NCBI GenBank assembly: GCA_963827235.1
Contig: CAWHAE010000012.1
Coordinates: 1,312,001 to 1,376,000 of the forward strand
Direction of reading: 5' to 3'
Length of the DNA: 64,000 nucleotides
DNA from: an uncultured bacterium
Lineage (GTDB): Bacteria; Chloroflexota; UBA5177; JANWHV01
Part shown: piece by piece, positions 8,162-60,193 of the stretch
Position numbering within the stretch: the stretch's first letter is position 1
Layout: each line of letters starts with the position of its first letter
The notes under the pieces: model-generated
What the model was told of the DNA's origin: nothing
The model's database searches: none
What the model saw: the letters and a program-made list of their open reading frames with translations, nothing else
Translations under genes and position numbers: made by a program

Positions 8162-8612
8162 ATTATGCTGATAGGGCGGCGTGTGGGTATGCCGACGTCG
8201 GTGACCGGTCCCGGCTTTGGCGCCCGCCTCGTGCCGGTGGTTGCCGAAGGTCGCAACCTTTCACCCCACCGCAAAAAGATAACCAGAGCTGTGACTGCGG
8301 CGGCGGTGACGCGGGGGGAACTGCCGGCCACGTCGCCGCCTGCCCGGCACATCTCCTGAGCACCAGAGTGATAGGTATCTATTTGCATCGGGTATCTTCG
8401 AGCCGGAGACGGATCGAGCGGCCCTTGCTGCCACATGCGTGCCACTCGCTCCGCCGCTTCTTCCCCTCGAGAGCATCCACCATTGAACCTATTTGCGCCG
8501 GGCGCCGCGCCACCGTCCAGAATGGCGGCGTGCCAAGCCATCGTGCATATCGTTGGGCCAGACAGTCGCCCCAGCTCGCGAGCGGTCAGCCGATGGCGGG
8601 CACAACCGGACC

Positions 8613-8712
8613 GTGACGCGGCCGCCTGTCGTTACACGACAATCGCAGCCATGCCGGGTATATCCGGAGACTGCCGCGGCCCAGGGCTCGCCCGGCCCAA
8701 GCTTTCGGCCAT
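8613..8712 (+). repeat. Dispersed intergenic repeat, copy 1 (diverged, ~9-nt internal deletion)
   Basis: 40/54 ungapped identity to 60040-60093, followed by the shared GAGAC..CCGCGG.CCCAGG block. Confidence 0.75.
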
Positions 8713-8969
8713 GCCGTGCGGGTCCGGCCGCCGATGGCAGGCACATGGTGCTGTGACAGCGCGGGCGCCTACAATAGTGAGCAGCCGGCCAGGGACGAGA
8801 CGGCCTTGAGGACGGCCACGACTGGCGGCGGCAGGACGAGGATGTCCCGCCACTATTGGCAGCGGAAACGCGCCGAACCGGTCCTGCTCGGTCGCGCGCG
8901 GCACGCCCGACAGCTCCGGCGCGGGAACCGCAGGGGCAGGATAGCGCAGAGATTGGAGGAGCGACCGAC

Positions 8970-10421
8970 ATGGGCACCGAAGGGCAGACGGCAATCGACA
9001 TCGTGCGCGGCACGCCGCTCAGCGGCACCGGCTTCAACCCGCTGTCGGCCAGGGCAGTACGGAGGTTGGCGGAGCTGCTCGGCCCTGAGCGCGTGTTGCG
9101 CTCGCCCGAGGATCTCCAGGTGTATGCCTACGACGGCACCTTCCTCGAGCACCGGCCCGACGTGGTCGTGCTGCCACGGACGACGGCCGATGTGCAGGCG
9201 GTGCTCAAGCTCGCCGGCGCGGAGCGCGTGCCCGTCATCGCGCGCGGGGCGGGTACCGGCCTCGCCGGGGGTTCCGTACCCCTCGCGGGAGGCATCGTGC
9301 TGGCCTTCACGCAGATGAACCGGGTGATTGAGCTGGACGAGGTGAACATGCTCGTGCGCGTGCAGCCGGGCATGGTGACCGCCGACCTGCAGGCGATGGT
9401 GCTCACGCACGGACTGTACTATCCGCCCGACCCGGCGAGTCAGAAGCAGTGCACGATCGGCGGCAACGTGGCCATGTGCGCGGGCGGACCGCACGGTCTC
9501 AAGTACGGGGTGACCAAGGACTACGTGCTCGGGCTTGAGGCGGTGACCGCCGACGGCAGCGTGATGCGCACGGGCGGCAAGATGATCAAGAACGTCACCG
9601 GCTACAACCTGACCCAGCTCATCGTCGGCTCGGAGGGCACGCTGGCGGTGATCACCGAGATCACTCTTCGCCTCCTGCCGAAGCCGCGCGCCGACCGCAC
9701 GGCAATGGCCGTGTTCGACGACATCGACGTGGCGAGCAAGATGATCACGGCCATACTCAACGCCGGTGTCGTGCCGGCCACGATCGAAATCATGGACCAG
9801 GATTCCGTTCGCCTGGTCGAGGAATGGCTCCATGCCGGGCTGCCCGTCGACGCCCAGGCGATATTGCTGATCGAGTGCGATGGGGAACCGTCGGCCGTGG
9901 AGAGCGAGCTCCGTGACGTCGAACGCCTCTGCCTGGAGGCCGGGGCGCGTGAGGTCCGCGTGGCCAGGGATGCTGCGGAGAGCGAGAAGCTCTGGACGGG
10001 CCGGCGCGCGGTGTCGGCGTCCATGGCCCGCGCACGGCCGACCAAGCTGGGCGAGGATATCTCCGTGCCGCGTAGCGCCATCCCGGAGATGCTGCGCGCC
10101 ATCCGCGCGATCGCCGCGAAGTACCGGCTGCCTATCCCTGTATTCGGGCACATCAGCGACGGCAACCTGCACCCCGAGGTGCTGTTTGACCGCCACGACG
10201 AGGAAGAAGTCTCCCGAGTGAACCTGGCCGCCGGAGAGATCTTCGACGCCGCGATTCGCCTGGGCGGCACGCTGACCGGCGAGCATGGCATCGGCGCCCT
10301 GAAGAAGGAGTTCATGGGCAGAGCACTGGATCCGGTGGAGCTGGAGCTCATGCGCCGGGTGAAGAAGGTCTTCGACCCGCAGGGCATCCTCAATCCGGGC
10401 AAGGTGTTCGGCACCAGGTAG
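8970..10421 (+). CDS. FAD-linked oxidoreductase, GlcD / D-lactate dehydrogenase family
   Basis: RGAGTGLAGG, YPPDPAS, TIGGN, GSEGTL, FGHISDGNLH, GEHGIG, LNPGK; GGAGGAG RBS. Confidence 0.92.
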   Translation: MGTEGQTAIDIVRGTPLSGTGFNPLSARAVRRLAELLGPERVLRSPEDLQVYAYDGTFLEHRPDVVVLPRTTADVQAVLKLAGAERVPVIARGAGTGLAGGSVPLAGGIVLAFTQMNRVIELDEVNMLVRVQPGMVTADLQAMVLTHGLYYPPDPASQKQCTIGGNVAMCAGGPHGLKYGVTKDYVLGLEAVTADGSVMRTGGKMIKNVTGYNLTQLIVGSEGTLAVITEITLRLLPKPRADRTAMAVFDDIDVASKMITAILNAGVVPATIEIMDQDSVRLVEEWLHAGLPVDAQAILLIECDGEPSAVESELRDVERLCLEAGAREVRVARDAAESEKLWTGRRAVSASMARARPTKLGEDISVPRSAIPEMLRAIRAIAAKYRLPIPVFGHISDGNLHPEVLFDRHDEEEVSRVNLAAGEIFDAAIRLGGTLTGEHGIGALKKEFMGRALDPVELELMRRVKKVFDPQGILNPGKVFGTR

Positions 10422-25564: not shown

Positions 25565-25632
25565 CCTCCGCAATCCGCAGTCTACCCCACCAGTTTGACA
25601 CGTTCGACGTCTCGGCGCCAGCCGTGCCGAAG

Positions 25633-25759
25633 CTGAAGTCCGCGATCCAGCGCTTCGGTCCGCCGATCCTGGGACCGCGGCCGTCTCGGCAGCCACCGGA
25701 CGCGCACGGCATCGCTTCCATCGTCGCCGGGCAACAAAGCGCTGCGTCACGATCTCCAG
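25633..25759 (-). repeat. Dispersed intergenic repeat, copy 2
   Basis: 99/127 identity without gaps to 60031-60157, in inverted orientation. Confidence 0.92.
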
Positions 25760-26013
25760 CCGTGCCGTCGAGTGCACTCTCACAGCCTGTACCCGCAGCC
25801 AAAGGGCACGGGCGCCGAGCGCCACGACGGACTCGCTGTTACCGCAGTATACGCCGAACCTGCAACCCGTGCAGCACGCGCTCCTGCCGAAGGCTGGATC
25901 TCACCAGGCGAGTGAGCAAGTGCCCGGCCCGGTTTCAGGCGGACGAACCCGATTCGTCTCCCTACCCAGAGGCACGGGGACCTGCCATGCTTCCGGCAGC
26001 GCGCCTCTCGCGC

Positions 26014-38722: not shown

Positions 38723-38763
38723 AAAAAAACCGGCACACGACACTCTCCGGTCGTGGCCGGTTT
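38723..38763 (-). terminator. Intrinsic terminator in the 5' leader of the beta-helix gene
   Basis: Minus strand AAACCGGCCACGAC-loop-GTCGTGTGCCGG followed by T7. Confidence 0.75.
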
Positions 38764-38917
38764 CACCAGTTGCTCGCTGCAGCCTAGGGTGACCAGGAGG
38801 GGGAAGGTGTCAGAAGAAGGGGAGCAGCGCCGCCACTCTCGCTTCCTCAGGCGCCGTCCTCTCTACGGCTGCAGGTCATCGCATCCACGGACCCTGTAAG
38901 GGATACTCTCAAGCTCA

Positions 38918-59451: not shown

Positions 59452-59868
59452 TCAGGCCGTCTTCAGCTCCGAGGTGCAGAAAGCGCAGCGAGTAGCGGCC
59501 GCGGGCACCGAGCTCAGGCAGAACGGGCAGTCCTTGGTCGTGGGCGCGGAAGGCACCACTTGCGTCTTGCGCAAGGTCAAGAAGAGGTTCAACGGCTTCA
59601 CCACGAAGAAGAAGATCGCGGCGGCAATGATCACGAAGGCAATCAGCGCGTTGATGAAATCGCCGTAGCGGAAGATACTGCCATGAATCGTGAAGGTGAG
59701 GCTCGAGAAGTCCGCCTTGCCCGGGATGGAGATGATTGGCGTGATGATGTCCTTCACCAGGGCGTTCACGACGGCTGAGAAGGCAGCTCCGATTACTACC
59801 GCCACTGCAAGGTCAACGACATTGCCGCGAAGAATGAACGCCTTGAACTCGCTCGCCAAGTTGCCCAT
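59452..59868 (-). CDS. mscL: Large-conductance mechanosensitive channel with C-terminal zinc ribbon
   Basis: EFKAFILRGNVVDLAVAVVIGAAF, YGDFINA; tail CPFC-X10-CAFC. Confidence 0.93.
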   Translation of the reverse strand: MGNLASEFKAFILRGNVVDLAVAVVIGAAFSAVVNALVKDIITPIISIPGKADFSSLTFTIHGSIFRYGDFINALIAFVIIAAAIFFFVVKPLNLFLTLRKTQVVPSAPTTKDCPFCLSSVPAAATRCAFCTSELKTA

Positions 59869-60030
59869 GGTGATCCCCTCCGCACTGCTGCGTACACGAC
59901 GGACTGCGCGATCAGCTGCCTGATGCGCTGGGCGCGAGCCGGCGAGACGCGTCCCGATGACTCGCTGCCTCTATGGCAGTGTAGCACAGCCCTGAGCAGC
60001 TCCGGCCCAGGCCTATTGGCCCGGGTTCAC

Positions 60031-60157
60031 CTGGGCATTGTGACGCAACGGCCTGCCGTCTCGCGACGATGGAAGGCATGTCGGGCATGTCCGAAGGCGG
60101 TCGAGACGACCGCGGTCCCAGGATCCGCGCACAGAAGCGCTGGATCACGGATTTCAG
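60031..60157 (+). repeat. Dispersed intergenic repeat, copy 3
   Basis: 99/127 ungapped identity to the reverse complement of 25633-25759. Confidence 0.92.
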
Positions 60158-60193
60158 GTCAGGGCCGCCGGCCCGGCCTGGTGACGGGAACCG

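Follow-up and report, generated by a model that had tools for sequence, protein, structure and literature searches.

The window analysed here, a stretch of 64,000 nt from the genome of an uncultured bacterium, carries three copies of an unannotated intergenic repeat, and the question it raises is whether this repeat is an RNA or a mobile element, and what could have spread it. A sequence-only reading had delimited the unit at 127 nt, aligned 25633-25759 (minus strand) without gaps to 60031-60157 (plus strand) at 99/127 positions, and matched a third copy to the latter at 40/54; both figures are borne out. It had also expected many copies genome-wide, and nhmmer finds 63-71 in the host genome (G000; 7.98 Mb, 21 contigs, ~65% GC, 95.9% complete, 9% contamination). 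Iterated nhmmer with a 127-nt HMM gave 64 matches at E<=1e-5, an extended model gave 63 copies at E<=1e-5 and 71 at 1e-3, and a second profile gave 81 at E<=0.01; the reversed genome, searched as a control, gave 0 matches at E<=1. The copies are intergenic, as had been noted: 69 of the 71 overlap predicted genes, called with a purpose-made hexamer gene caller, by at most 30 nt. Because copy density is 8.9/Mb over the whole genome (71 copies in 7.98 Mb) and reaches 14.7/Mb on the window's contig, three copies in 64 kb represent a local excess. Two weak extra copies (C18:288287-288406 and C10:746914-748164) adjoin, or lie ~1 kb from, another copy, possibly through repeated insertion at one promoter region. 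Few or no copies lie on contigs C16, C17, C19 and C11. The genome has two strong dnaA matches (C16:621254 and C12:11080), and its assembly measures 8 Mb compared with 4.4-5.4 Mb in congeners; together with the uneven spread of copies, these observations make a second replicon or a mixed bin possible.

Conservation among the copies runs 8 nt past each of the earlier ends and then drops to background, which defines a 143-nt unit. The sequence-only reading had reported neither terminal inverted repeats (TIRs) nor target duplications (TSDs), because ~8 nt had been cut off each end; once the ends are extended, both are present. The imperfect TIRs are ~28 nt long, of the form GGGC...GCCC and 19/28 (68%) complementary in the consensus of the best 15 copies; comparing the two ends gives 19/34 matches at offset 0 against 6-12 at 8 other offsets; their length and terminal C are those of the ISKra4 family (18-39 bp, terminal C). 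In 35 full copies, flank identity in the duplicated region is 0.54 versus 0.29 in permuted pairs (z ~9.9), this region being the best of 275 length/offset tests, in which the top matches share one lag. Identity is raised along lag 9 and not along lags 8 or 10, and at least 6 of 9 positions agree in 12/35 full copies (1.4% expected), a 9-bp duplication within the 8-9 bp of the family. The unit is non-coding: substitution rates by position modulo 3 are 0.19/0.19/0.16, and the copies differ by indels of 1, 2, 5 and 10 nt. No internal 9-nt periodicity was found in the element. Instead of being a novel RNA, the repeat adds one more example to an already known kind of mobile element, and it is very probably a non-autonomous, promoter-targeting miniature inverted-repeat transposable element (MITE) from the ISKra4 family of prokaryotic Mutator-like DDE transposons (p-MULT4). 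The three copies in the window, with their duplications and neighbouring promoter elements, are as follows.

60023..60165, plus strand: copy 2, complete at 143 nt, diverging ~10% from the family consensus
60014..60022, plus strand: left TSD of copy 2; its partner at 60166-60174 is 5/9 identical, decayed
59978..59983, minus strand: TGn-extended -10 box that begins 40 nt beyond the left end of copy 2 and is conserved in congener G001
59452..59868, minus strand: mscL (PF01741)
25625..25759, minus strand: copy 1, with its right end at 25625
25616..25624, minus strand: right TSD of copy 1, the first 7 nt of which are found again at 25756-25762
25579..25584, minus strand: -10 box that begins 41 nt beyond the right end of copy 1 and is conserved in G001
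8598..8729, plus strand: copy 3, 132 nt, older, with 9-nt and 2-nt internal deletions
8589..8597, plus strand: left TSD of copy 3, perfect 9 bp (9/9)
8730..8738, plus strand: right TSD of copy 3, 9 bp (9/9)
8770..8775, plus strand: -10 box that begins 41 nt beyond the right end of copy 3; a FAD-linked oxidase gene (8970-10421) follows

Copy 1 appears to have lost its first 8 nt. Its TSD agrees at 1/9 positions at the standard offset, and a 12-nt direct repeat at 25756-25767 and 25618-25629, at lag 138, fits a 14-nt microhomology deletion of those 8 nt; with two CTGG words as its boundaries, such a deletion would join the left TSD of copy 1 to element position 9. The -10 box at 59978..59983 is probably the mscL promoter, and mscL would accordingly be driven by the promoter at which copy 2 was aimed. 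The promoter-facing end is the right one in copies 1 and 3 and the left one, towards the mscL promoter, in copy 2. Insertion either way round, with the distance to one promoter kept constant, explains the inconsistent orientation remarked on earlier. One DNA sequencing run (0.07 share) has neither a joint across copy 2 nor a piece that spans the copy, and so does not bear on it.

The same spacing recurs throughout the genome. The motif TAnnnT starts 36-43 nt outside the element in 26/56 right flanks and 19/45 left flanks, against 4.0% in intergenic background; this interval was picked after the histogram was seen, and the mode of the start lies 40-41 nt out, with a TG extension. Among the 35 full copies, 29 have a -10 box, on one side in 27 and on both in 2, and 6 have neither (Fisher p=0.0016 for exclusivity). 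The adjacent gene is directed away from the element in 40 of the 45 flanks with a -10. At outward position 17, TTG occurs in 8/45 promoter-side flanks and 2/56 others, which places the -35 at 16 bp from the element end; this falls within the 13-17 bp upstream of a sigmaA/70 -35, on either side, that is typical of the ISKra4 group. Junctions that played no part in setting the 36-43 interval behave alike: three ends of a resident ISKra4-family IS, described below, have a -10 at 40 (left ends; TAnnnT in 2, the third differing by one base but with a -35 close to consensus at 17), of 8 distinct metagenome junctions bearing this IR 6 have it at 40-41, and several IR-like ends in congeners G001 and G004 agree by eye. 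A peak so narrow would be unexpected from survival alone. In the portions of PMC3942029 drawn on here, the ISKra4 group inserts 13-17 bp from sigmaA promoters, on either side, with IRs of 18-39 bp and direct repeats of 8-9 bp, and contact with the RNA polymerase initiation complex is proposed. The same portions associate an IR complementarity of 83-100% with two-orientation insertion, as a correlate and not a defining feature; the IRs of the MITE are 68% complementary, yet its insertion is two-sided. According to the part of PMC9208149 used, ISLre2 and ISKra4 elements lie preferentially 50-250 bp from genes.

The sequence-only reading had seen no transposase; a cognate ISKra4-family transposase sits elsewhere in the genome. 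NF033572 scores over the NCBIfam cut-off at 4 places in G000, one of them with an internal stop. Three of the four are 98.4% identical elements of 1826-1840 bp (~1.83 kb) with perfect 9, 9 and 10-bp duplications, each ~16 bp upstream of a -35-like box.

G000:C5:66539-68377: ISKra4-family IS copy, encoding 516 aa
G000:C12:467436-469261: ISKra4-family IS copy, with a shifted tail
G000:C16:890543-892382: ISKra4-family IS copy, encoding 516 aa
G000:C17:243511-243791, C12:1117074-1117250 and C10:187663-188242: partial or relic IS ends

Motifs at residues 191, 270, 297 and 386 would fit the D, D, D(2)H and E of the transposase, which scores 249.6 bits on ISKra4 (NF033572) and 51.6 on ISLre2 (cut-off 200). 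The IRs of the resident IS are 20/23 complementary (87%). At its right end the MITE agrees with the right IR of the IS in 21/23 positions and with the left IR in 20/23; its left end agrees with the IS IRs in only 15/23, and its interior has no homology to the resident IS. The MITE therefore belongs to the IR lineage of the resident IS and is not a simple deletion of the present IS, and the case for the present IS as the exact mover stops short because the left end reaches 15/23 and the interior is unrelated. By these comparisons, the mover was probably a DDE Mutator-like (ISKra4) transposase and not the RAYT/TnpA, IS110 or reverse transcriptase considered earlier. Among 9 relatives confirmed out of 74 candidates in the collection of genome contigs, the one nearest to the transposase is 48% identical and belongs to a Thermomicrobiaceae MAG, in keeping with a host from the Chloroflexota. 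A search for a longer parent with paired MITE-like ends 0.25-8 kb apart found none; the resident IS came from the family search. A PF06782 match was rejected as a different, stop-broken ISKra4 element with other ends. Next to a stop-broken ISKra4 transposase on G000:C15 (L001 2346-3403) are ORFs that we take to resemble the nuclease-tipped end of an interbacterial polymorphic toxin and an immunity gene.

These IR comparisons also bear on an origin in another family with 8-9 bp TSDs (IS256, ISLre2 or IS4/IS5-IS903 types) or as a REP/IS200-type HUH element. A 9-bp duplication is not unique to ISKra4, and the weak link between orientation and strand skew (see below) recalls HUH elements, both of which count for such an origin. 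It is nevertheless extremely improbable, being largely refuted by the IR match to an ISKra4 IS and by the transposase scores given above. G000 has no match to PF00872 (IS256-type), and the fixed promoter distance is unlike an IS256 MITE (p-MULT1). REP and IS200-605 HUH elements, whose partner is a RAYT/TnpA, have no TIR or TSD, and both are present here; we know of no HUH element that makes a target duplication. In the parts of PMC3942029 on which we rely, no positional enrichment was found for IS256; none of 5 IR motifs taken from its Table S1 was found as an element end.

The remaining candidate from the sequence-only reading, a multicopy structured non-coding RNA, has some features in its favour, as folding of the consensus gives a long hairpin from end to end (z -1.7) and covariation measures lie at the upper edge of shuffles (21-34 of 500). 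However, the hairpin is explained by the TIRs alone, RNAalifold yields 0 consensus pairs, and the flanking promoters are directed away from the element. Cells pair at 75.1% versus 74.3% when shuffled, pairs with both sides changed number 23 versus 22.0, and substitution rates are alike at paired and unpaired sites (0.184 vs 0.174). Taken together, the pair statistics are at or just above those of shuffles (21-325 of 500), within reach of related unstructured sequences, and a conserved structure with covariation of the Rfam type was not found. No RNA family had been recognised before, and Rfam agrees, with no match at the copies and 0 at E<=1 in 6 of them; we regard an RNA as very improbable. 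Of the earlier proposal of a structured ncRNA or a non-autonomous mobile or REP-like element, the mobile half stands, and the structured ncRNA and REP-like halves are unsupported, given no Rfam match and no consensus structure. At gathering score, the Rfam search of the window returned only a c-di-GMP-II-GAG riboswitch elsewhere (38747-38895, minus strand; 43.4 bits), longer than the 86-nt model.

The ISKra4-type MITE seems to be old. Pairwise identity among copies is at most 89%, without near-identical young copies; divergence from the consensus is 7-38% in 18 full-length copies, and 36 copies form a star-like tree, its internal branches summing to 0.84 and its terminal ones to 8.56. This pattern points to an old burst, after which the copies would have decayed independently. 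An identical 9-nt deletion occurs in 4/36 copies that are ungrouped in the weakly supported tree. The ends change faster than the interior (Fitch 6.3-9.8 versus 4.7-5.6 changes per column, p=1.5e-6), which counts against this reading because simple neutral decay does not predict it. The slower change of interior columns would suit an element of MITE origin that was later domesticated, its interior serving as a shared cis-regulatory site upstream of ~70 promoters and bound by a host factor or the transposase, as would the location of all copies with a detected -10 at the promoter's upstream edge. We nonetheless hold domestication to be distinctly unlikely: position is already accounted for by targeting, no column is invariant in 36 copies, independent internal deletions of 5-21 nt occur, the few annotated neighbours are unrelated, and the family was not found in 4 congeners. 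Slower central decay could instead stem from gene conversion among copies or from erosion that starts at the flanks.

Copy orientation opposes the local T-over-A skew in 50/71 copies (p=0.0008, the copies not being independent), and at three window sizes the relation holds in 49/71, 50/71 and 46/71. No relation of G skew to orientation was found in the 71 copies. As a replichore marker, the skew was unsupported by tRNA direction (24 vs 26) or by octamers learned on C12, and GC skew is weak in the G000 contigs used for this test. Contig C9 stands apart from the others in its G skew, which is strong and V-shaped (z from -10.6 to +15.7). A bolder reading would be that an RNA-polymerase-guided MITE set a 143-nt module at an identical position upstream of ~70 promoters, with the interior kept as a shared regulatory site, and/or that position is set by the promoter and orientation by the direction of replication. 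We think this unlikely. If true, promoter and replication direction would form a two-cue targeting rule, which was not found for ISKra4 in the literature searched.

BLAST detected the interior of the element in 0/40 relatives. By profile search, with 150 candidates scored per genome, it was found in 0/4 congeners, and weak matches (E 0.001-0.008) were obtained in 4/16 other genomes of the class. Empty sites were sought at 12 sites (9 sites with 11 alignments, and the 3 window sites) in relatives ~80% identical, and among the matches listed a clean empty site was seen at 1/12: at C18:283665-283807, G001 keeps both flanking -10 regions and is without 168 nt where 152 were expected. The remaining 11 sites have broken synteny, an extra gene or unalignable spacers. 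In G001 the mscL spacer (L026, G001:C15:91532) is occupied: an IR-like end lies at the offset of copy 2, and the interior is unrelated and single-copy. Either a sister MITE inserted independently at the mscL promoter or both genomes share a very old insertion; the promoter was possibly targeted more than once. G001, G004 and one metagenome contig also carry elements whose IRs are related but whose interiors differ, with IR pairs 103, 214 and 232 nt apart (loci L044, L045, L049, L053, L054, L057, L058, L061 and L190). Judged by their ends, they are putative sister MITE families. In L045, a hairpin follows the IR, presumably resembling an IS200/605 end. In L011 (G003:C7:426-1719), an ISKra4-family element with related IRs is shortened internally to 1.3 kb.

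We propose that the MITE ends were bound in trans by a transposase from the lineage of the resident IS, probably one that preceded the copies now present and was related to them. Excision or copying of the MITE would have gone by way of the family's published circular intermediate, and contact with the RNA polymerase initiation complex would have guided the transposase to promoters, as in the published model. Copies may have survived because they were sited just outside core promoters, and following the old burst of spread they would have decayed independently, mostly as neutral relics. The MITE and the resident IS offer a compact system for how ISKra4 transposases find promoters, a mechanism that is only proposed in the sections of PMC3942029 available to us. 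Furthermore, probable sigma70 promoters of an uncultured bacterium, with a TGn-extended -10 and a weak -35, can be located with a precision of one or two bases from the 45 promoter-side junctions. The significance is modest.

No paper on promoter-targeting ISKra4 MITEs was found in the literature searched, in which subscription journals are thinly covered. Like the bacterial MITEs ERIC, RUP and Correia, the element is short, non-coding, multicopy and intergenic, and its TIRs form an end-to-end hairpin; ERIC, RUP and Correia duplicate TA, whereas the MITE described here duplicates 9 bp and keeps a fixed promoter distance. TnGBS and ISLre2 (p-MULT3), on the evidence of the parts of PMC3942029 cited above, resemble it in lying 15-17 bp upstream of a sigmaA -35 and in their 8-9 bp duplications. 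They differ in inserting in one orientation and in being mostly from Firmicutes, and the resident transposase falls far below the ISLre2 cut-off. The words "MITE" and "miniature" are absent from the main text of PMC3942029. The ISKra4-group IS in that text (p-MULT4; ISKra2/4/5/6 of Ktedonobacter and others) are coding elements in contrast to the 143-nt MITE, the IRs in the 8 Ktedonobacter rows and 1 Frankia row examined in Table S1 begin GGGT where the MITE IRs begin GGGC, and the low IR complementarity of a two-sided MITE departs from the correlate reported there. As far as this source extends, the ISKra4 group and the MITE have in common IRs starting GGG with a terminal C, 9-bp duplications, and insertion ~16 bp upstream of the -35 on either side.
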